64,000 bases of DNA from Nitrososphaeria archaeon (GCA_029775965.1 JARVJU010000002.1:2578-66577), one strand, 5' to 3'. Numbered from the stretch's first letter, positions 5,615 to 64,000 are shown. Notes: generated by a model from the sequence alone, not told the origin. Numbers and translations are program-made.

Positions 5615-6013
5615 GGAAAAGTTGCGGAACGACTACCCTTCTTTTTCACAAATGATCCTGTAAGTCAGCTGTAGGTTACTGCAGATTGAGTGCAAGTTTA
5701 AGATAGGCCTTCATGGCTTGAAGAAATCATAGCAAGGATTGCGCTAGGGCATAACAGGTTTAAGTTTGATGTCCCATACGCTGCATCAGGGAATCAGGTG
5801 TATCAGGCGGTCAGTTTATTTGAACACTATTACCATTTCAACCATAACATCTATATAACGCTATGTCAAAAAGATTATAGGCGATGGATTCCGCCGGAGC
5901 CTGACGGCTCGAACCGCTCCATATGGAAGCTGATGAATCCTATCGAACACATGTAATGGTATGGTGTCAACAGTTGCCGATCCAGTTAACTGCCATATGG
6001 AGGCTGTCTGCCA

Positions 6014-28320: not shown

Positions 28321-29511
28321 ATGGAGGAAAATGATGTCTATGTTGTTGACTTTAAGAGAACTGCTTTTTCTCGTGCAAGGCCTAATGAACCTGAGAAGGA
28401 TGTATTCAATTCTATAAGGATGGATCAGGCATTAGCTCAGCTGATAAGGACAATAGTGGAAGAAAATGACATTGCAGAGGGAGAGATAGGAGATGTAATA
28501 ACTGGTTGCGCATTACAGGTAGATGAGAACTGGCTTTATGGAGGTAGACATCCTGTATTACTAGCAAAGCTACCAGTATCTGTACCATCTGTTGCAATGG
28601 ACAGAGCATGCGCCTCTTCCATGAATGCTGCCGCGCTTGGCTCCTTCGAAATTATGACAGGGCATTCAGACATAGTGCTAGCAGGAGGTATGGAGCACAT
28701 GACTCATGTGCCCATGGCAAACAACCCGCATATAGCAGTGAATATGAGACTTCTTCTTAGGCCTGAATATATGAAGTATCAGATGAACATAGGGTACGTC
28801 ATGGGTCTCACTGCTGAAAAGCTGGCAGAAGAGACAGGTATAACGAGAGAGGAGATGGACAGGTACTCTTTAGAATCACACAGAAGGGCAGCTTCAAGCT
28901 ACGATCAAGGATGGTACAAAGATGAGATAATACCCATGAATGTAGAGGTTGAAGGAAAAGAAGTCACGGTGGATAGAGACCTCAGCATAAGGCAGGAAAC
29001 CTCTATGGAACAGCTTTCAAAGTTGCCTCCTGCATTTAAGGATAATGGTGTGATAACAGCTGGAAATTCCTCTCCCTTGAACTCAGGAGCTTCCATGCTT
29101 CTTCTCGTATCGGGGAAAAAAGTAAAAGAATCAGGTTTGAAGCCTCTTGCAAAGATACTTGGCTTTGGCTGGGCAGGAGTAGAGCCAAGTGTTATGGGTA
29201 GAGGTCCTGTACCTGCAACCATGAAGGCACTCAGAAAGGTTGACCTGAACATAGATATGGTAGAACGCTGGGAGATAAACGAAGCATTTGCTGTAGTAGT
29301 CTTAAATGCAATTAAAGAGCTATCTCTCGACCCCTCAAAAGTAAATGTACATGGCGGTGCAATAGCTATTGGCCACCCACTTGGTGCATCAGGTGCCAGA
29401 CTTATAGGAACTCTTGCAAGGCAGTTACACGAAGAAGGTAAAGAGTACGGTGTAGCAACATTATGCGTTGGCGGTGGGCAGGGATTTACAACAGTTCTTC
29501 AGAGGGCCTGA
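28321..29511 (+). CDS. Acetyl-CoA C-acetyltransferase / 3-ketoacyl-CoA thiolase
   Basis: Active-site Cys region DRACASSMNA, NEAFA, GGAIAIGHPLGASG and CVGGGQG. ATG 28321 is preceded by GGGAGGT. The ORF-track start at 28270 overlaps the upstream gene. Confidence 0.9.
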   Translation: MEENDVYVVDFKRTAFSRARPNEPEKDVFNSIRMDQALAQLIRTIVEENDIAEGEIGDVITGCALQVDENWLYGGRHPVLLAKLPVSVPSVAMDRACASSMNAAALGSFEIMTGHSDIVLAGGMEHMTHVPMANNPHIAVNMRLLLRPEYMKYQMNIGYVMGLTAEKLAEETGITREEMDRYSLESHRRAASSYDQGWYKDEIIPMNVEVEGKEVTVDRDLSIRQETSMEQLSKLPPAFKDNGVITAGNSSPLNSGASMLLLVSGKKVKESGLKPLAKILGFGWAGVEPSVMGRGPVPATMKALRKVDLNIDMVERWEINEAFAVVVLNAIKELSLDPSKVNVHGGAIAIGHPLGASGARLIGTLARQLHEEGKEYGVATLCVGGGQGFTTVLQRA

Positions 29512-49384: not shown

Positions 49385-50242
49385 TTGAGTTACCCAAGCC
49401 AAGTAAGGAAGATACTTGAAGATATAAAAAATGACAGAATTAGCGGTTCGACGTCTCTTGCGCTAAAGGGGCTCGAAGCCCTAAAGGTATTTGCAAAGCA
49501 GTATACTGATGATAGAAATACAGCATTATTATTAGCAAAAGAACTTGTATCTTTAAGGCCAACATTTGTGGCTATAACGAACGTCATCAGCGAAGCAGTT
49601 TCCTCGTATCTGTCAGGTTCTTCTTCTCTTTTAGATGAGGCAGAGAGGCTGCAGAATAAAGTTATAGATGCTAAAAGTAAAATAGCATATGAATTCTCAA
49701 AAGTTTTGGGAAGGAGAGAAAAAGTATCAGTTCTGACAATCAGCAACAGTAGTTCTGTCAGCAAAGCGATAAAGGATAATTCAGACAGGATATCATCCGT
49801 TTTTGTATGTGAAAGCAGACCTGGGGGAGAAGGGGAGATGCTGGTTGAAGAGTTAAATTCTTCACATATAAGATCTTATCTTATTCCTGATCTTGCTGCT
49901 GAAAGCATGATAAAGCAGGTTGATTTCATAGTTATAGGCTCGGATGTGATTTACGAAGATGGAAGCATAGTAAATAAACTGGGCTCCAGCACTCTAACAA
50001 AGCTGGCATCCTTGGATGGGAAGAGGGTGTACGTCTTAGCTGAATCATTCAAGGTATGCCCGAAGGGGCATAGTATAACACTTGAGTTCTATGACAAAGA
50101 CAAAGCTATACCTATGTTCGATATTACACCTCTTACCTATTCTCAAGTGATACTTAGTGATAAAGGTATTTTGGGGAAGAAGGATATAGCATCATTAGCT
50201 AAAAGATATGCTAGCTATCTAGCTAATATTATGAATCGCTGA
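49385..50242 (+). CDS. eIF-2B alpha/beta/delta-family protein (sugar-phosphate isomerase-like)
   Basis: VDFIVIGSDVIYEDGSIVNKLGSSTLTKLASLDGKRVYVLAESFKV is the hallmark C-terminal region of the family. Confidence 0.7.
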   Translation: MSYPSQVRKILEDIKNDRISGSTSLALKGLEALKVFAKQYTDDRNTALLLAKELVSLRPTFVAITNVISEAVSSYLSGSSSLLDEAERLQNKVIDAKSKIAYEFSKVLGRREKVSVLTISNSSSVSKAIKDNSDRISSVFVCESRPGGEGEMLVEELNSSHIRSYLIPDLAAESMIKQVDFIVIGSDVIYEDGSIVNKLGSSTLTKLASLDGKRVYVLAESFKVCPKGHSITLEFYDKDKAIPMFDITPLTYSQVILSDKGILGKKDIASLAKRYASYLANIMNR

Positions 50243-55409: not shown

Positions 55410-55663
55410 CGCGTTCTAAAATGATATCTTAGTTTTTAAACTTTGGCTGTTAACACCGTGAGTGAGAAGTCCCCTTGAGTTGGTGAGGGGATGGAAGAGA
55501 GCAAAGTTAAAAGATATTACAGCAGATGCAACAGAGGATTTGTAGCCTATGCATATTATATCAGCATTGTATGGTATTTTTAAATTCTAGGCAACTTTTA
55601 CACTGCCTATCTGTGTTTAAATCTGAGAGTGCCAGAGCTACTGACCGAGGCAAGCGATGGAAT

Positions 55664-56587
55664 TTGGACAAATTCTCAGCAGTAAAAGATTTTGAAGTCA
55701 GCCCACATCAAGCATCAGAAATAGTTTCAAACATGGGGAAGGCTGGAGGCTTCACAGGAAGGAATCTAGCAGAGGCAAGCGATATACTGAAAAAGATGTG
55801 GAAGGAAAGAGACTGTTATAAAATTCTCTCATTCACCGCTGATATAGTTTCAACCGGCTTAAGAGGTGTGGTTAGGCAGCTTCTTAGGGACAGAAAGTTT
55901 GACATGGTTATAACGACTTGCGGTACATTGGACCATGACATAGCTAGATCCTTTGCTCCTTATTTAGAAGGAGATTTTGCTCTTGATGACAAATTACTGC
56001 TAAAAAAAGGATATCACAGACTTGGTAATATCGTTATACCAAAGGAATCTTATGGTCCTACAATAGAAAAGTTTCTTCAGCCCCTTCTGCATGAGCTGTA
56101 TGCTTCAGGTAAAAAGAGCCTTGCTTCTTATGAGCTTGCGTGGGAGGCAGGTAAGAAGATGGAGAATAAGGGTTCAATACTGTACTGGGCCGCAAGAAAC
56201 AATATTCCTGTTATAGTACCAGGAATAAGTGACGGTGCTTTTGGGTCTCAACTATGGCTATTTTACCAAACACACAGAGATTTCCATGTAGATATACTAA
56301 AAGATGAGCAGATGGTAGCAGATGCAGTCTTTGATTCAAACAAATTAGGTGCCTTGATGGTTGGCGGAGGTATATCGAAACATCATACTATCTGGTGGGC
56401 ACAGTTCAAGGGGGGGCTCGACTATGCTGTTTACATCACTACCGCGGTTGAATACGATGGAAGTCTGAGTGGCGCTTGGCTAAGGGAAGCGATAAGCTGG
56501 GGGAAGGTGAAACCGAAGGCAAAGCATGTCACAGTTTACGGCGATGCAACTGCTGTGCTTCCGTTTATAGTATCTTCAGCCTTGTGA
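55664..56587 (+). CDS. dys: Deoxyhypusine synthase
   Basis: GFTGRNLAEASDILKKMW, TCGTLDHDI, and GGGISKHH near the C-terminal third. The first 46 codons of the ORF-track version are non-conserved and Cys/Leu-rich, so I tentatively start at the in-frame TTG 55664. Confidence 0.8.
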   Translation: MDKFSAVKDFEVSPHQASEIVSNMGKAGGFTGRNLAEASDILKKMWKERDCYKILSFTADIVSTGLRGVVRQLLRDRKFDMVITTCGTLDHDIARSFAPYLEGDFALDDKLLLKKGYHRLGNIVIPKESYGPTIEKFLQPLLHELYASGKKSLASYELAWEAGKKMENKGSILYWAARNNIPVIVPGISDGAFGSQLWLFYQTHRDFHVDILKDEQMVADAVFDSNKLGALMVGGGISKHHTIWWAQFKGGLDYAVYITTAVEYDGSLSGAWLREAISWGKVKPKAKHVTVYGDATAVLPFIVSSAL

Positions 56588-56620
56588 TGTTTTACAAAAC
56601 CACTTATGATACGGTTATAA

Positions 56621-57586
56621 GTGAGTATTAACGCACAATATGACGTGAAGGACCCTCTGGAGTACGTAAGCAAAGAATACCTACCCTGGATGAAGGGTCT
56701 CATCTCTGTCGACCTGAGATCACGGGGTTATAGTGAGTCCAAGATTTCCATGTTGATAGGTGTTACTCAGCCCTCTGTCAATTACTACCTAAGACGGGAG
56801 AGACAGGCCTATCTCAGAAGGCTGGAAGCTATAGGCCTGACTAACGATGCTATTTCAGAACAGGAACGAAGACTAATAGATGCGCTTCAAAATCCAACTG
56901 CTGAGGGTACAACAAGGCTACTTCTCACATTGCTAGATGTGCTATCAAGCGGCATGCTTTGCACTCATCACAAGAAAGTGGATAATCTACCACAAGATTG
57001 CGACGCATGCATGAGGCTTTTTGGAACCGGTTCAGCAGCTGCAAGATCCTCAATTCTCGTTGAACTAAACGAAGCTATAGATAGACTTGAGCAATCGGAA
57101 AATTTTCCGAAGCTGATCCCAGAAGTCTATACAAACTTCGTAGCTGCAGCTAAAGATGCCAGGACAGAAAAGGACATAGCGGGTATAGCAGGAAGAATAG
57201 TAAAGCTGAGGGGAAGAGCAAAAGCCATGAATCGAGCTGAATTTGGTGCTTCAAGGCACCTTGCATCCGTACTGCTAAAGATAAAATCAAAATTTCCTTA
57301 TATCCTGAGCATCATGAATGTCTGTTATAATGAGGGCGTAGATAGAAGCTTAAGCAAGTTGGGATGGAGAATTGTTAGGGCATCAATGGATAATAGCAGA
57401 AATATAGAGGCGGACCCAGTGGTCTCTGCTATACAAGAAGCTATTTCGAAGCTACCTTCAGAGCCGGATGCCATAATACACACTGGAGGTTATGGTCTTG
57501 AGCCTGCTACTTACATCCTTGGCAGAAGTCCATCTGAGGTATGCGAAAAAGCTCTGCAGCTGGCTGATACATATATAAGATATTAG
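56621..57586 (+). CDS. HTH domain fused to ThiN domain (ThiR-like thiamine-responsive regulator or ThiN enzyme)
   Basis: N-terminal HTH (ESKISMLIGVTQPSVNYYLRR). The C-terminal ThiN-like region is IPEVYTNFVAAAKDA...IAGRIVKLRG...EFGASRHLASVLL. Confidence 0.6.
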   Translation: MSINAQYDVKDPLEYVSKEYLPWMKGLISVDLRSRGYSESKISMLIGVTQPSVNYYLRRERQAYLRRLEAIGLTNDAISEQERRLIDALQNPTAEGTTRLLLTLLDVLSSGMLCTHHKKVDNLPQDCDACMRLFGTGSAAARSSILVELNEAIDRLEQSENFPKLIPEVYTNFVAAAKDARTEKDIAGIAGRIVKLRGRAKAMNRAEFGASRHLASVLLKIKSKFPYILSIMNVCYNEGVDRSLSKLGWRIVRASMDNSRNIEADPVVSAIQEAISKLPSEPDAIIHTGGYGLEPATYILGRSPSEVCEKALQLADTYIRY

Positions 57587-57625
57587 CAGCATATCGAACT
57601 CTTTTATATATGCAACGTAAAACGC

Positions 57626-58861
57626 TTGATGTTGACACCACTGGGCTACTTTTTTGCTATACTGGGTACTATGCTATCTGTATACACAGCCTACTGGGGT
57701 CTTTTACTTGTGGCTGGAGGAATAACGATAAGGAAGGATAGGAAAACCTGGAAGAACAGTGCAGCGAGGCCTAGAGTTTCTATCATAATACCTGCAAAAA
57801 ACGAGGAGAAGGTGATAGGCAGATTGCTAGCCTCCCTGCAGACTATCAACTATGATAAGGATAAAGTTGAGATCATAGTCTCTGAGAGTGGTTCAACAGA
57901 CCATACGGTTGATGTTGTGATGGACTTCTGCAAACAGGATAAGAGAATAAGGCTGGTGCGCTCTGGGGCAGTTGGAAAGGGCAATGCATTGAATGAAGCA
58001 ATAAAATATGCTACAGGAGAACTCTTTTTCTTCACTGATGCGGATTGCGTTCCTGAAAACGACTTTCTTGTCAAGGCTGCTGCCATGTACGCGGCAAACG
58101 TACATTCCATGGTTGGCTACCCAAAGACGATAAACTCAGGTCAGAATATCCTTACCAAGCTTGCAATTTTTGAGGACTTAATATGGAGGATTATGTCTGT
58201 AGGTAGAGATAGGCTTGGGCTCTCGGTACCTCTAGCTGGCCCATATTGTGTAATCAGCAGAAAGGCTCTATGTAGTGTGGGATTCGAATTCCGGGATGTA
58301 CTGACTGAGGATATAGAGCTCTGGGCAAGACTTCTAAAAAATGGGTATGTAACTCGTTACATAGATGCCTTCGTCTGGCAGGAGGCTCCATCTCGTCTAA
58401 CAACTCTTATCAGACAAAGGATAAGGTGGTATAGAGGTTATATGGAGACTGGTTTACATCATATTGATATTTTTAAAAGGACAGATCTGGCAAAGGCAAC
58501 TGATGCTCTCCTAATGCTTTCAACCCCCTTCTTCGCTATGCTGTCTATATTTTCTTATTTTATATCATGGTTCAGTTTACCCGACCTAGCCTCAAGCCTT
58601 GGTATAGTCCTGTTCGTAGCTGTCTTCTTCGGAGCCAATATACTAGGCTTTATTGCGCTTAATGCAGGGCTTGTTTATTTTGCAGGCAAGGATGCTCTGG
58701 GTTTACTGAAGATAAGCCCATTTGTATACCTCTATTTCATAGTCTTAGGGATATCAAGCTCTCTTGCTATTCTGCATCTGATAACAAGGAGGCATGCCAT
58801 ATACAACAGAACTGAAAAGACAGGTTACTCTGACATGTCATTCCTACAGCAGAAACGGTGA
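57626..58861 (+). CDS. Family 2 glycosyltransferase, membrane-integrated, processive type
   Basis: SIIIPAKNEE, the DAD motif (FFTDADCVP), TEDIEL, and Q(R/Q)xRW as QRIRWYRG. An N-terminal TM helix and a C-terminal TM bundle are present. Confidence 0.8.
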   Translation: MMLTPLGYFFAILGTMLSVYTAYWGLLLVAGGITIRKDRKTWKNSAARPRVSIIIPAKNEEKVIGRLLASLQTINYDKDKVEIIVSESGSTDHTVDVVMDFCKQDKRIRLVRSGAVGKGNALNEAIKYATGELFFFTDADCVPENDFLVKAAAMYAANVHSMVGYPKTINSGQNILTKLAIFEDLIWRIMSVGRDRLGLSVPLAGPYCVISRKALCSVGFEFRDVLTEDIELWARLLKNGYVTRYIDAFVWQEAPSRLTTLIRQRIRWYRGYMETGLHHIDIFKRTDLAKATDALLMLSTPFFAMLSIFSYFISWFSLPDLASSLGIVLFVAVFFGANILGFIALNAGLVYFAGKDALGLLKISPFVYLYFIVLGISSSLAILHLITRRHAIYNRTEKTGYSDMSFLQQKR

Positions 58862-60407
58862 AGGTCTTCTGACCCCCTTTCCTTCAAATATCTCCCTCAG
58901 AGATTCATTAACAGGGCAGATTTTAGAGCTCTCCCCATCTATCTCCCTCAGAGATTCATTAACAGGGCAGGTTTTAGAAATGGATAGCAGGAAGCAGGAC
59001 GTTGTTAAGATATACAACTGCGGCCTAACGGTTTATGACAGAGCGCATATTGGACATGCAAAAGAGATTGTAATATTTGATGTATTAAGAAGAGTGTTAA
59101 TTGCCAAGGGTTTTAAAGTTGTTTATGTTCAGAACTTTACAGACGTAGATGATAGAATAATAAATAAGGCGAGAGAATCTCATCTTCAAGCAAAGGATAT
59201 AGCTGAGAAATACATAAACGAATACTTTGCAGACTTCGAGAAGTTGAACATAATGAAAGCAGACCACCATCCAAGAGCTACTGAGCATATAGAAACCATG
59301 ATAGAGATAATAGATTCGCTTTTAAAGAAAGGTTATGCCTATGTCAGCAAGTCAGGCGTATATTACGACGTGGCCAGATTCAAAGATTATGGCAAGCTTT
59401 CAAAGAAGGGGATAGAAGAGCTCAGAGCAGGTTACAGAATAGAACCAGATCCTTTCAAAAGAGATCCAGCTGATTTTGCTTTATGGAAATTTTATGATGA
59501 CGAACCCTTATGGGATTCGCCCTGGGGGAAGGGAAGGCCTGGGTGGCATATAGAGTGCTCTGCTATGATAGATAAGATCCTTGGAGAGCCCATAGACATA
59601 CACGGAGGAGGTGAAGACTTGATCTTTCCACACCATGAAAACGAGATAGCACAGAGTGAGGCCTATGCAGGGAAGATTTTAGCAAGAATATGGATGCATG
59701 CCGGTCTGCTGAGGATAAAGAGCGTCAAGATGTCCAAATCATTGGGTAATTTCATTCCTGTATCTGAAGCTGTAGCAAGATTCGGAAGCAACACAGTAAG
59801 GTATTACCTTTTATCCGCACATTACAGAAAGCAACTGGACTTCGACCTTGATAGGATAGCAAAGGCAAACGAAAACTGGAGGGTCATAGAATCAGCTGCA
59901 AATTATCTAAGTTATTCGAAAAGAAATAAGAAGATGAAAGAAACAATATCACAGCCTAAACAGCAGCTGGCTGATAAACTGCAAGAGCTCATACAGAAAT
60001 TTCCTGATATACCTCAAGTGCTTGAAATATTCGCATCATTTGATAAATCCTTATCTTATGACCTTGATACGCCATCAGCTCTAGCAAGCATGCTAAGGAT
60101 CTCAAGATATGTAAATAGACTTGCAGGCAACAGGAAACTTACACAGGAAGTGATAAGCTTGATCGAACCTGTGTTCTATACGATGTTTTACATACTAGGA
60201 TTCAAACTCCCTCTTATCGATGATGTAACTAACAAGAGGATAGAGGCTCAGGTAGCAGAAAGAAACTCGTACAGAGCTAAGGGTGACTTCTTACAGGCTG
60301 ATAAGATTAGAGATGATCTTGCCAAGGAAGGTATACTGCTCATCGATATGGGAGATAGCACTGTCTGGTACAGAACAGAATTAATGAAACGCAACGAAAT
60401 AAATTAG
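58794..60407 (+). CDS. cysS: Cysteinyl-tRNA synthetase (start codon uncertain: ATG 58794 or ATG 58980)
   Basis: HIGH motif (AHIGHAK), zinc/cysteine site WHIECS, and KMSKS (VKMSKSLGN). The conserved N-terminal strand (xxYNxLTG in other CysRS) aligns to the duplicated [10 protein letters not shown][IV]LE upstream of ATG 58980. Confidence 0.85.
58889..58978 (+). repeat. Two 39-nt direct repeats (38/39 identical), period 51 nt, at the 5' end of cysS
   Basis: TATCTCCCTCAGAGATTCATTAACAGGGCAG[A/G]TTTTAGA occurs at 58889-58927 and 58940-58978. The period of 17 codons is in frame with cysS. Confidence 0.9.
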
Positions 60408-60421
60408 AGAACATTTTATTA

Positions 60422-61561
60422 ATGTATGTGACTGCTTTTTGGTGCGAACAGAAATTGCTTCAGGTATATTTCCAGACAGTTGCTGAAACGCTAAACTTCC
60501 TCTTTAATATACTCTGGGTAGTGCTTGTAATGGCTTTCTTATTCTACGGGAACAGACTGCAGATATACATGTCTTTAAGGCAAGTTGGCAAAAATCTGCA
60601 AGCTCTTGAAAGAATGCGCACACAGTCAAGGCAGAGGATAATTGATGAGTTAACGAAACACGGTGGAGAGCAGTCTCTTGTCAAATCAGAAGTTGACAGA
60701 ATATTGGCAAGCATAATGATAGAGCCTGTGAATATGGACCCAAGCGGTATAGTTTACAAGCTGGAGCATCTTATAAAGACGTATGAAGATTATTTCAAGT
60801 CTAAGGTTGCGAAGCTGACTCCTAATGCTGGGAAGGTTCTGAGGCAGAATCTTTCGAATTTGGTAGAAGTGGGGATGCAGCTTGACTATCTGTACAGATA
60901 CGTAAGACACCTTTACACTTCAGCAAAGAAATACAACGACCTTTTCGCTGTGGTTCAGCTTCAGATGATGATGCCAACACTTATGGATACTGCCAATGCA
61001 TATTATTCAGCCGTAGATGCCTTTACAGAAGGGCAACCCATAGGTGATAGCTTCGGCCCGATGGTAGCATCCAAACTCATGGAAGGCGCGAATGTTAAAC
61101 TTGTAGCAGAGGAGACTGTATATGCAGAGACGGAATATCAGGGAAGAAAATTACTTATAGTCAAGGCGGAAGGTCCTGGGGGCACCGTAGGCAGGCCAGG
61201 AGAAGCAATAGAAAAATTACTTACACTCTATCCCTCAGTATCCATGGTTGTTACTGTCGATGCAGCCTTGAAGCTTGAGGGTGAGAACTCTGGAGAAGTG
61301 GCAGAAGGGGTAGGAGCAGCGATAGGAGGGCCTGGGGTAGACAGATATAGGATTGAAGGGATAGCAACAAGCCATAACGTTCCTATGTATGCTATAGTGG
61401 TCAAGATGTCAGAAAAGGAGGCTATAGGCAAGATGAAGAATGAGCTAAAGGCGCAGGTGGATGAAGTGATAAGAAGGTTCAGAAGGCTTCTTGAAGAGAA
61501 GACCAAACCTGGCACAATGGTCCTTTTTGCTGGCATCGGCAATACAATAGGGGTTGTGTAA
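60422..61561 (+). CDS. Archaeal membrane-anchored protein of unknown function (possibly the DUF1512 family)
   Basis: 379 aa with an N-terminal TM helix (FLFNILWVVLVMAFLFYG) followed by a soluble domain. The family assignment is from memory of size and architecture only. Confidence 0.35.
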   Translation: MYVTAFWCEQKLLQVYFQTVAETLNFLFNILWVVLVMAFLFYGNRLQIYMSLRQVGKNLQALERMRTQSRQRIIDELTKHGGEQSLVKSEVDRILASIMIEPVNMDPSGIVYKLEHLIKTYEDYFKSKVAKLTPNAGKVLRQNLSNLVEVGMQLDYLYRYVRHLYTSAKKYNDLFAVVQLQMMMPTLMDTANAYYSAVDAFTEGQPIGDSFGPMVASKLMEGANVKLVAEETVYAETEYQGRKLLIVKAEGPGGTVGRPGEAIEKLLTLYPSVSMVVTVDAALKLEGENSGEVAEGVGAAIGGPGVDRYRIEGIATSHNVPMYAIVVKMSEKEAIGKMKNELKAQVDEVIRRFRRLLEEKTKPGTMVLFAGIGNTIGVV

Positions 61562-62339
61562 GCTCTTTCCAACCTGAAAGGTTTAGTGCTGTAGCTCTAC
61601 TGAATTCTTCGCTACCTGACGTACTCCCACCCCTGAAAAGTATGGGGGTCCACTTTTGCTTCATTTTTCTTTCGTCTTCACTCCTCGCTGTCTGGACGGT
61701 TACGTAGGAACCTGTTACAGAGTTTTGTCATCTCTCTAGCCCTAAAAGTTGCCGCTTTGAAGGTATCGGTGCTGCCTCTGCATGCATCTCTGTCTGCATG
61801 CAATCGAGATATGTTTTTAATTTTAACTTTAATTTAACCCATTCCTTTGCTGCATAGGCTGTGGAATGGAGACATTCTCAACCTCATGGCAAAGTTCTGT
61901 CGGGTCAGTTGCTACACGAAGATTTTCAGGCATGAGTTTCTCAGAGAGTAGTTTCATGCCTGAGCACAATATTTCTTGACAATATATGACAGTTTTCATT
62001 CATGCTGGGAGTGAGGCATGTCTTATCTTAGAGGCCAAGGCGGCATATTTACTCATTAGCATGGAAAACAAATTTCATTTCGCCACTCCGCTAAAGCGAT
62101 GTGGGCTTGTTTGTTCCTCAAAGCTCTCTTTGGGTAATATCGAATGTAGCAAGTCCTATGTCAACTGCTTTGTCCTTCTACTGACAGCCTCATGTAAAGC
62201 TAGCTACATTCTGCTATTTCTCTTCTCTTTATAATATAACTTTAAGTTTTGACTGGCATATAAAATTTTCTGGAGCCCCATAATTAAACCAATCTGCTTT
62301 ATATTCTGTGTTCCCCTATAGCTAAGGGGGTAGAATTTT

Positions 62340-63371
62340 TTGAATGCTATAGTCAAGCAGTCAGTAGCTCCTGGGGCAGTATTGAAGGATGTTTCTGAGC
62401 CACGAATCAGCAGCAAGCAGGTTCTTGTGAAGGTGAAAGCGACAAGCATATGCGGCACGGACGTGCATATATACGACTCCAACGAATGGGCAAGGTCAAG
62501 GATAAAGATCCCACTTATCATGGGACATGAATTTGCAGGTGAGGTTGTAGAGGTAGGAAAAGATGTAACAAGCTTGGTAGAAGGGGATCATGTTTCTGGT
62601 GAAACACATATACCTTGTATGAGGTGCGAACAGTGCAGACTCGGCAACTATCACATATGCGAAAATCTGAAACTAAGAGGAGTAGATGTAGATGGTTGTT
62701 TTGCAGAATTCGTGGCTGTTGATGAAATGACAGCTTGGAAGAATGATAAGTCTATCCCTTTTGATGTTGCCTCTGCCCAAGAACCTTTGGGCAATGCTGT
62801 ACATACAGTTTTTGAAGGAGGAGGGGTAGAAGGTAAGAAAGTTGCTATATTTGGCTGTGGCCCGATAGGCATAGCAGCCGTAGGATTATGCGTTCAGTCT
62901 GGCGCTGAAAGCGTCTATGCAGTTGATATATCAGACTACAGACTTTCATTAGCAAAATCTTTTGGAGCAACAAGTGTGATCAATTCAGCCCGTGATGACC
63001 CTGTAAAATTCATAATGGATTCGACTTATGGTCACGGGGTAGATGTCTTTCTTGAAATGGCAGGGGCAGAGCAGACGATAAGGCAGGGGCTGAAGGTATT
63101 AAAAGCTGGAGGTAGAGCTTCTTTACTTGGGCTACCTGACAAAGAAGTCAGTATAGATATAAGTTCAGACGTGGTACAGAAATACATCACAATTAAAGGA
63201 ATATTTGGTCGCAGAATGTTTTCTACTTGGTACACCACTGCAGCTTACCTTAGGTCTGGCAGGATAGACCTGTCAAAGCTTATTACTCATCACTTTAGGC
63301 TTGAACAATTCGAAGAAGCATTTAAGCTTATGAAGACAGGCAAAAGTGGCAAGATAGTTATGCTGCCATAA
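62340..63371 (+). CDS. tdh: L-threonine 3-dehydrogenase (zinc-dependent MDR family)
   Basis: CGTDVHIY, GHEFAGEVVEVG, the structural zinc loop CMRCEQCRLGNYHIC, and Rossmann GCGPIG. TTG start. Confidence 0.85.
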   Translation: MNAIVKQSVAPGAVLKDVSEPRISSKQVLVKVKATSICGTDVHIYDSNEWARSRIKIPLIMGHEFAGEVVEVGKDVTSLVEGDHVSGETHIPCMRCEQCRLGNYHICENLKLRGVDVDGCFAEFVAVDEMTAWKNDKSIPFDVASAQEPLGNAVHTVFEGGGVEGKKVAIFGCGPIGIAAVGLCVQSGAESVYAVDISDYRLSLAKSFGATSVINSARDDPVKFIMDSTYGHGVDVFLEMAGAEQTIRQGLKVLKAGGRASLLGLPDKEVSIDISSDVVQKYITIKGIFGRRMFSTWYTTAAYLRSGRIDLSKLITHHFRLEQFEEAFKLMKTGKSGKIVMLP

Positions 63372-63378
63372 TGGCAAA

Positions 63379-63981
63379 TTATGTAAGATCTAACAGCTCA
63401 GGAATTCTCAGAGCTTCCAAAGCCTTGCTTATAACATATGTTAGCTTATCAGCTATACCATAAAGCCATAGCTCTATAGCTATGGATCCGAATGCAGCCA
63501 GAGTTATTCCCAGAAAGATGCCAGCTATAACATCTGTAGGGTAGTGCATACCTACATAGACTCTCGAGTAACAGACTACAGCAGCTTCGGCTGAAAGTAT
63601 AGCTGAGAGAGCTTTGTTCCTGAATTTCATAACAGCGAAGCTTGCTCCCACCGAAACTATCAGTGCATGGCCAGAAGGAAATGAGGAACCAAAGTCTGGA
63701 GGGACTCTAGCCACAATTGCAGAAAGCGCTTCAAAAGGTCGTTCCCGGAAGTAAATATGATGCAAAGCAAGCCCTACAATTATGGCTGCTATGAATATTC
63801 CAGCAAGTTCAACAGCTAGGAACCTTGTTTTTTCTCTGCCGAAAAGAAGCATTATCGCTGTGACAGGTATCCAGAAATATTCTCTTCCATACAGAGATGA
63901 ATATACGAGGAAACTATTGAGATACCCACCAGCATATCTATTCAAAAGTAAAGAGTAGCTGTTGTCTATGCTTCTTGTCAT
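63379..63981 (-). CDS. PAP2-family lipid phosphatase (polyprenyl-diphosphate/phosphatidate phosphatase-like)
   Basis: Three PAP2 motifs (YFRERPF, PSGH, SRVYVGMHYPTDV) and 5-6 TM helices. Confidence 0.8.
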   Translation of the reverse strand: MTRSIDNSYSLLLNRYAGGYLNSFLVYSSLYGREYFWIPVTAIMLLFGREKTRFLAVELAGIFIAAIIVGLALHHIYFRERPFEALSAIVARVPPDFGSSFPSGHALIVSVGASFAVMKFRNKALSAILSAEAAVVCYSRVYVGMHYPTDVIAGIFLGITLAAFGSIAIELWLYGIADKLTYVISKALEALRIPELLDLT

Positions 63982-64000
63982 GCCAGAGATTACGAGATAG

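Follow-up and report, generated by a model that had tools for sequence, protein, structure and literature searches.

The cysS locus and its duplicated 5' end

The stretch of DNA analysed here, called the window, comprises 64 kb from a Nitrososphaeria archaeon (JARVJU010000002.1), an uncultured species of Conexivisphaerales (Nitrososphaerota) of the hot-spring type. Its cysS gene, encoding cysteinyl-tRNA synthetase (CysRS), lies directly behind a GT2 glycosyltransferase gene, and the longest open reading frame (ORF) of cysS runs from 58794 to 60407 (537 aa). The subject of this analysis is the 5' end of cysS, where a direct repeat and an unusual start region were observed together.

Two copies of 39 nt (58889-58927 and 58940-58978), identical at 38 of 39 positions (97%), are placed 51 nt apart from start to start. 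Both are in the frame of the cysS ORF, and the period of 51 nt equals 17 codons, a multiple of three, which preserves the frame. In these respects the initial annotation was borne out by repeat search and translation. The 30-nt core of the repeat occurs exactly twice in the window, with 0 occurrences expected from 100 shuffles. Tandem Repeats Finder called no tandem array at the repeat, because 12 of the 51 nt are not repeated.

A codon-by-codon scan of the cysS frame revealed an upstream stop (TAA at 58782) and solely two canonical starts, ATG 58794 and ATG 58980, with no ATG, GTG or TTG in frame between them, as had been claimed before. Near-cognate codons in this frame are CTG at 58812, 58830 and 58869, ATC at 58890 and 58941, and ATT at 58920. 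ATG 58794 is located 68 nt inside the GT2 ORF (stop TGA, 58859-58861) and is preceded by AGGAGG with a spacing of 1 nt, again in agreement with the initial annotation. At the GT2/cysS junction the window reads acGGTGAaggtcttCTGacc, in which GGTGA contains the GT2 stop and the in-frame CTG 58869 follows seven nt on. A mini-ORF of four codons (GTG AAG GTC TTC TGA, 58858-58872) also exists here in another frame, starting inside the GGTGA motif and ending with a stop that overlaps CTG 58869 (cTGA).

The species is represented by five metagenome-assembled genomes (MAGs; GCA_038734905, GCA_038883915, GCA_038877195, GCA_038727985 and GCA_038876315). Besides the window, which stands for one of the five, the DNA of the four others was compared (L001, JAVZLD; L090, JAVYXC; L091, JAVYUV; L092, JAVYYT), and the CysRS protein cluster at 90% identity holds eight entries drawn from several assemblies. 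Both repeat copies are present in each of the five assemblies, which derive from different samples and diverge by about 0.7%; the window and L001, for instance, differ at 56 of 8438 positions. Since these five assemblies have distinct single nucleotide polymorphisms (SNPs), an assembly artefact, which the initial annotation had considered, is excluded, and the duplication in cysS is real. CTG 58869, the GGTGA motif and ATG 58794 are present in all five strains, with GGTGA-aggtctt-CTG invariant. Two scans of Joint Genome Institute (JGI) metagenome contigs, using a degenerate 10-residue pattern and the lineage-specific C-terminal domain, gave no further strains with the repeat. In L092 (1790-1915, JAVYYT) a gap of 10 N followed by about 115 nt of foreign, GC-rich sequence lies inside cysS, a scaffolding or chimera error that splits the gene into calls of 96 aa and 479 aa (P0123 and P0122). 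Because of the N-run and the foreign insert, the changes private to copy 1 of this contig (D>N and T>I) were treated as unreliable and were not relied on.

The cysS ORF is intact in four assemblies, and its core is under purifying selection, with 7 nonsynonymous and 16 synonymous differences over 1425 nt in four strains (ratio of nonsynonymous to synonymous polymorphism, pN/pS, about 0.11), which indicates a functional gene and not a pseudogene. The 118 nt of 58862-58979 carry 5 nonsynonymous and 2 synonymous differences among the strains (pN/pS about 0.9), with a SNP density of 5.9% versus 1.6% in the core; a Poisson test against the nonsynonymous rate of the core gave P = 0.0003-0.002, and Fisher's test gave P = 0.08. 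This stretch evolves nearly neutrally, under relaxed constraint. Strains L001 and L090 have TC>AT at 58884-58885 (S>I, yielding TATAAATA) and C>T at 58874 in lead 1, and L>P at 58930 in lead 2. The change TC>AT, found in 2 of 5 strains, also converts CCTTCAAATATC into CCTATAAATATC, a TATA-box-like octamer about 27 nt upstream of 58913, which could create an internal promoter downstream of CTG 58869. Divergence from L001 is spread unevenly over 55563-64000 of the window, where the 3' end of GT2 and cysS hold most of the SNPs (18 in 1428 nt of the cysS core, 1 in 1107 nt of DUF1512 and 4 in a 778-nt intergenic stretch); recombination between strains around cysS may be the reason. The features of the region are collected in Table 1.

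Table 1. Features at the GT2-cysS junction of the window
Feature	Coordinates	Strand	Evidence or remark
GT2 glycosyltransferase gene, stop TGA 58859-58861	57629..58861	+	Pfam PF00535/PF13641
AGGAGG-C-ATG, annotated start of the 537-aa cysS ORF (PGAP, the NCBI Prokaryotic Genome Annotation Pipeline)	58787..58796	+	
GGTGA, Shine-Dalgarno (SD)-like motif overlapping the GT2 stop codon	58857..58861	+	Identical in five strains
CTG, proposed initiation codon	58869..58871	+	In frame; positional homologue of the TTG of relatives
Lead 1 (TPFPSN), variable pyrimidine-rich stretch ahead of copy 1	58872..58889	+	
Copy 1, extra 13-codon unit	58890..58928	+	Repeat search; no counterpart outside the species
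Spacer/lead 2 (LSPS), presumed ancestral lead of the strand	58929..58940	+	Matches closest relatives in protein and DNA
Copy 2, predicted functional N-terminal beta-strand and turn of CysRS	58941..58979	+	Alignment to PDB chains; AlphaFold2 model
ATG, internal Met; alternative start of 475-aa gene calls (P0126, P0127)	58980..58982	+	
cysS core: Rossmann fold, HIGH and KMSKS motifs, anticodon-binding domain	58980..60407	+	Purifying selection

The N-terminal strand of CysRS and the place of the start codon

The Pfam family PF01406 (tRNA-synt_1e) matched residues 66-359 of the 537-aa ORF with E = 4e-123 (411 bits against a cut-off of 27), covering positions 5-300 of the 301 in the profile. The motifs AHIGHAK and KMSKS are present, and C76, H85, G87, H88, C255, H280, E284, M313, K315 and S316 are invariant in an alignment of 41 sequences; C76, C255, H280 and E284 are presumably the zinc-ligand positions, as we take them from E. 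coli CysRS. In Pfam match, motifs, conserved residues and selection, the predicted product of cysS is an ordinary CysRS.

The second copy had been aligned with the canonical CysRS N-terminus in the initial annotation, and this alignment held. HMMER placed copy 2 and the residues following it on the first strand of the solved CysRS chains 8qhp, 3tqo and 1li5 (from residues 15, 4 and 7, respectively), and the same region aligns without gaps to the N-termini of relatives among 119 homologues. The closest relatives outside the species (50-57% identity) begin with M-x-x-L-[SG]-P-[ST]-I-S-L-x-D-[TS]-L-[TS]-G and have the catalytic Cys at residue 34. The LSPS lead together with copy 2 fits their L-S-P-[ST]-I-S-L pattern, and the likeness extends to DNA, the window reading CTC TCC CCA TCT ATC TCC CTC and the relative L083 reading CTG TCC CCC ACC ATC TCC CTT. 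Copy 2 retains I-S-L-x-D-x-L-x-G at the level expected of an orthologue of 50-56% identity, though the leads have diverged. No counterpart of copy 1 was found among the 119 homologues outside the species.

An AlphaFold2 model of the 537-aa ORF had a mean predicted local distance difference test (pLDDT) of 85 and a predicted template modelling score (pTM) of 0.86. In the model copy 2 is placed in the canonical hairpin (strands 49-53 and 60-64, pLDDT 78-96 over the block), and pLDDT stays below 50 over residues 1-42, a range that takes in most of copy 1. By alignment and model, copy 2 with the LSPS lead is thus predicted to be the strand with which the N-terminal beta-hairpin of CysRS originally began, and copy 1 is probably a redundant, unstructured appendage. 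The hairpin is encoded by copy 2 and modelled with high confidence, while its presence in the protein hinges on the start codon used. The catalytic Cys would be residue 76, 51 or 14 for starts at 58794, 58869 and 58980, respectively; it is found at residue 24-40 in nearly all complete proteins among the 119 homologues. The strand appears less indispensable than the initial annotation implied, given that the Pfam match begins at residue 66 and that 58862-58979 is near-neutral.

The gene order DS-ThiN-GT2-cysS-DUF1512 is common to the window and the contigs of P0002 (L083 and L084), P0003 (L089) and P0017 (L094 and L095). The C-terminus of GT2 (...KTE[KR][ST]GY[SV]D, nine further residues and the stop) is conserved residue by residue with L083, L089 and L094, so the stretch 58794-58861 is truly read in the GT2 frame, whose stop is ancestral. 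The cysS start of L083 is a TTG 1 nt past the GT2 stop, behind GGTGAGAGG, and that of L089 a TTG 5 nt past the stop, behind AGGAG, so that these start codons begin at +2 and +6. The same layout of SD, stop and start is seen at two other junctions of the window, GGGAGG TAA gagc ATG at 28321 and GAGG TAG agc TTG at 49385. Genes led by an SD in the window have a spacing of 5-7 nt between SD and start, and the first genes of operons appear leaderless, with a TATA-like box about 20-34 nt upstream of their start. A profile search of genome contigs, built on the alignment of close relatives, returned mostly bacteria through universal CysRS motifs and was uninformative for the junction.

CTG 58869 occupies the same position as the TTG of the relatives and is a single transition away from it. 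A start there gives 512 aa with the catalytic Cys at residue 51, which is the 34 of the relatives plus the 17 inserted codons. A near-cognate codon is thus found at the start position of the homologues, with an SD at a workable spacing (7 nt), and it is invariant in the five strains. From these comparisons of sequence, the favoured reading is that cysS initiates at CUG 58869 and encodes a 512-aa protein, and a probability of about 0.4 is assigned to it; we infer that CUG is the codon actually used and that copy 1 is translated. The initial annotation saw a real start-codon problem, but the three options it gave, ATG 58794, ATG 58980 and a non-canonical codon such as ATC 58941, omitted this best-placed candidate.

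A species-specific duplication of part of the cysS 5' end, with the frame preserved, has added 17 codons. The gene is the second of a GT2-cysS-DUF1512 operon in which the architecture of the relatives is kept and the codon at their start position is now CTG. In the mechanism proposed here, ribosomes engaged by the GGTGA SD, or terminating on GT2, would initiate at CUG 58869; the two 39-nt cores are apparently kept alike by exchange between the copies. CTG, ATT, ATC and ATA are listed as rare starts in NCBI table 11, and infC of E. coli starts at AUU. Ribosome profiling of Haloferax volcanii yielded putative alternative initiation sites of which about 30% were near-cognate (PMC7261190), and the coupling of closely spaced archaeal genes by termination-reinitiation is established and strongly dependent on distance (PMC6728339; PMC10666635). 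Our literature search gave no direct precedent for CUG starts in archaea.

Several points weigh against initiation at CUG 58869. A canonical in-frame start before the conserved N-terminus is absent in L094, but one exists in the window, namely ATG 58794, and it is the start used by PGAP. Chance alone could well place a CTG among 9 in-frame codons. The near-neutral evolution of 58862-58979 also fits an untranslated leader with the start at ATG 58980, and a hairpin-less enzyme would keep nearly the whole catalytic domain, the Pfam match to which begins only at residue 66. In a 2017 study by Hecht and co-workers CUG is said to be a very poor start codon in E. coli, and a quotation of that study elsewhere gives ATT about 0.3% of ATG. 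The efficiency of termination-reinitiation in H. volcanii drops with distance, with 40-60% lost at 13-14 nt (PMC10666635), and the gap here is 7 nt. Read-through of the GT2 stop codon into cysS was rejected, as the two frames differ in the window.

Alternative start sites and the origin of the repeat

If cysS instead started at the annotated ATG 58794 inside GT2, the 537-aa protein would have a 62-residue extension in which 25 residues, read from GT2 in another frame, precede lead 1, copy 1 and lead 2. This is the sole canonical in-frame start that includes the conserved strand, no stop interrupts its frame in any of the five strains, at least five NCBI records carry it as the PGAP start, and AlphaFold2 tolerates the extension as a disordered tail. 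The AGGAGG just upstream would serve as its SD-like motif, yet the spacing is 1 nt against the 5-7 nt of the SD-led genes, and the motif is explained by two Arg codons of GT2. No TATA-like box is found about 27 nt upstream either. No relative has a cysS start that overlaps GT2, and an in-frame stop in L094 makes such a start impossible there. The in-frame stop at 58782 is just 4 codons upstream, and an open stretch of 25 codons would arise by chance with a probability of about 0.2-0.3 by our own estimate. The two SNPs in the overlap (58825 and 58834) leave the GT2 protein unchanged but alter residues in the cysS frame, and their density equals that of non-overlapping GT2. A start at ATG 58794 is for these reasons regarded as somewhat unlikely. 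It is unlikely, to a slightly greater degree, that translation begins at ATG 58980, in which case the N-terminal strand would be lost and the upstream 118 nt with both copies would be an untranslated intercistronic leader, still coding-like since the loss is recent. The near-neutral evolution of this stretch (pN/pS about 0.9 against 0.11) is what such a leader would show, L001 and L090 carry the L>P change at the nearly invariant L4 of lead 2, the Pfam catalytic match from residue 66 would be spared, and other gene callers give 475-aa proteins from here. Nevertheless, Met 58980 falls on an internal F/L position of the hairpin in the N-terminal alignment, Cys would be residue 14 versus the 24-40 of nearly all complete homologues, and copy 2 keeps family-typical residues despite its diverged flanking leads. 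Nor is there a convincing SD (AGGT with 7 nt of spacing in four strains, AGAT in L001) or a TATA box at about -27. Three short calls in other lineages were inspected as well; in L093 and L094 the strand is retained in frame ahead of the called start, and in L096 a TTG start was missed. Inspection by eye of -20 to -34 revealed no TATA-like box of an internal archaeal promoter for either ATG, and a scan for sigma-70-type promoters is not applicable to archaea.

Another near-cognate codon, or several of them, would be very unlikely as the start. ATC 58941, the example given in the initial annotation, would put Cys at residue 27, as in most CysRS of Nitrososphaeria, and restore the M-K-L-Y-N-T-L-T-type N-terminus of more distant relatives; it and ATC 58890 are invariant in five strains, and the L093 lineage has ATT at the Met position. 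However, neither ATC has an SD-like motif at a useful spacing, ATC 58941 finds no promoter support, and the nearest relatives all have a 7-residue lead before the strand. ATT 58920 is the best-aligned near-cognate alternative, since it falls exactly on the Met of the nearest relatives and would put Cys at residue 34 as in them, but it is GTT in L091 and was excluded. Other or mixed start sites taken together are considered improbable. It is hardly credible that the repeat has a regulatory role outside coding, as two sites for protein binding or as an RNA leader, or that it arose in assembly. In the four good assemblies all eight copies share one and the same 30-nt core, five turns of the helix separate the two copies, and each core has a small palindrome (ATCTC-N5-GAGAT). 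Core identity is not significant at such low divergence, though, with about 1-2 changes expected, and the core is absent elsewhere in the window. The region 58700-59100 gave no Rfam match at E <= 1, and its predicted fold is less stable than that of shuffled sequences (minimum free energy -31.8 against a mean of -36.7 kcal/mol, z = +1.21). The codon-by-codon homology to the CysRS N-terminus argues in the same direction, and the statement of the initial annotation that the repeat is coding sequence and not a leader agrees with all three results. The artefact is contradicted by the five assemblies with distinct SNPs. The sole Rfam match in the window is a fluoride riboswitch (crcB motif, RF01734) at 5871-5949 on the plus strand, with 38.5 bits against a gathering score of 34.

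As for its origin, the repeat is not a clean tandem duplication of 51 nt. Of the 51 nt in a period 39-40 are repeated, while the two 12-nt leads, TTTCCTTCAAAT and CTCTCCCCATCT, agree at 5 of 12 positions and differ at 7; no shift or rotation of the duplication unit gave a register relating the leads beyond chance similarity. A clean tandem duplication by slippage in a single event was rejected, as the copies are not adjacent and 12 nt of the period are unlike. At the site that distinguishes the copies (58920/58971) three strains have A,G, whereas L001 has A,A and L091 has G,G, and a second pair of paralogous sites, 58928/58979, is also homoplastic among strains. This homoplasy suggests exchange or gene conversion between the copies, which would allow an older 51-nt duplication whose cores were homogenised while the leads drifted. 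The repeat may have originated by such a duplication, or by a two-step template switch.

Parallel lineages, known systems and meaning of the locus

A related situation was observed in the P0017 lineage (called as 452 aa), which is represented by more than 24 contigs, some above 1 Mb. In L094 (923-1003), with which L095 is identical, the stop of GT2 (TGA, 923) is in frame with cysS, so no upstream start of cysS is possible, and no canonical start occurs before 1001. Behind the stop come aatttc, CTG CTG and a stretch of 20 codons in which ATG, GTG and TTG are all missing. Its final 13 codons encode KFSLSQKVRLLDS, homologous to KLNISGNIRLFDS of P0015 (78% identical overall) with conservative substitutions. 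The strand segment, including KVRLLDS, lies upstream of the called TTG 1001, which is the L of DSLT. By sequence, at least two lineages with the GT2-cysS junction thus appear to have no canonical start at the ancestral place and a CTG right after the stop.

Short calls of other kinds were also seen. In L093 (870-950), a cysS of Nitrososphaeraceae (P0097, called from GTG as MRIYVCG), the whole hairpin is in frame upstream of the call. The sequence there is TGA AAA GAG ATT AAG CTG CAC AAT, in which ATT takes the Met position of relatives, and the ATG at 875 (ATGA) belongs to another frame. In the 190-member cluster of L093 many JGI calls are 441 aa long, and the NCBI calls of 463-464 aa begin with MKLHN, MIKLHN or VIKLHN. 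L093 could be explained by initiation at ATT, by a +1 frameshift within the A-run or by an indel in a contig of low coverage. For P0024 (435 aa, on a 145-kb contig, with P0003 as a close relative) the call begins inside the HIGH motif (MGHAKV...); the true start must be upstream and could not be called, and either a frameshift or a further non-canonical start may be the cause. The calls of P0055 and its relatives from GTG (VEELEY...) are simple miscalls: in L096 (971-1003) a TTG in frame 30 nt upstream yields MKLYNTLSRQVEELEY, matching P0071.

Set against known systems, the locus combines familiar and unfamiliar parts. With canonical class I CysRS (E. coli 1LI5/1U0B; 8QHP and 3TQO) it shares the full catalytic domain, the HIGH and KMSKS motifs, the anticodon-binding domain and the strand of copy 2; it differs in the extra 17-codon unit, which repeats 13 strand residues, and in having no canonical start at the N-terminus. 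The syntenic cysS genes (P0002/L083 and P0003/L089) are alike in gene order, in the C-terminus and stop of GT2, in an SD-like motif over the GT2 end and in the 7-residue lead before I-S-L-x-D, whereas they have TTG and a single copy of the strand where the window has CTG and two copies. The direct repeat, with its near-identical copies and a period that is a multiple of three, resembles replication-slippage duplications, but its copies are not adjacent, owing to the 12-nt stretch in each 51-nt period that is non-repeating (5/12). We know of no autoregulatory logic for cysS like that of IF3 and infC. Initiation at codons other than AUG, GUG and UUG (infC with AUU; H. volcanii, PMC7261190) offers a likeness in the near-cognate codon behind an SD at the start place of the homologues; here, in contrast, the codon is a candidate start read from the sequence, and the gene encodes an aminoacyl-tRNA synthetase of Nitrososphaerota. 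Pairs coupled by termination-reinitiation (Huber et al. 2019, PMC6728339; 2023, PMC10666635) are likewise co-directional, with a very short gap and an SD in the upstream 3' end, but they typically overlap by 4 or 1 nt, whereas the gap to CTG here is 7 nt and the restart codon would be non-canonical. What is unusual in this cysS is the redundant N-terminal unit of 17 codons and, probably, initiation at a near-cognate codon; non-canonical initiation itself is known.

A wider pattern, in which cysS would be routinely started at near-cognate codons in several lineages of Nitrososphaerota (CUG after the GT2 stop in two Conexivisphaerales-type lineages, AUU at the Met position in a clade of Nitrososphaeraceae), is considered unlikely. 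The idea draws on the L094 case, on the ATT of L093 and on the many truncated calls of 441 aa in the cluster of L093. If it were true, the weak start codon would be a selected feature that sets or regulates the synthesis of CysRS, like the AUU of bacterial infC, and the duplicated strand would be a by-product of instability at the unusual 5' end of cysS.

The choice of start codons in archaea beyond haloarchaea and Sulfolobales is almost unstudied, and annotation pipelines allow ATG, GTG and TTG alone. Here the case is clean and reproducible and concerns a housekeeping gene that is essential; pipelines give two wrong-looking answers for it, 537 aa and 475 aa, and the comparison with relatives points to CUG at the ancestral start position. 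The duplication is a small example of a redundant N-terminal segment that is tolerated with its copies kept alike, with no evident functional consequence. If CUG 58869 is the start, CUG initiation would be documented in Nitrososphaerota, and truncated or over-extended gene calls of CysRS would be explained. Initiation at near-cognate codons, whether dependent on an SD or coupled to termination, would then have a natural test case in this junction.

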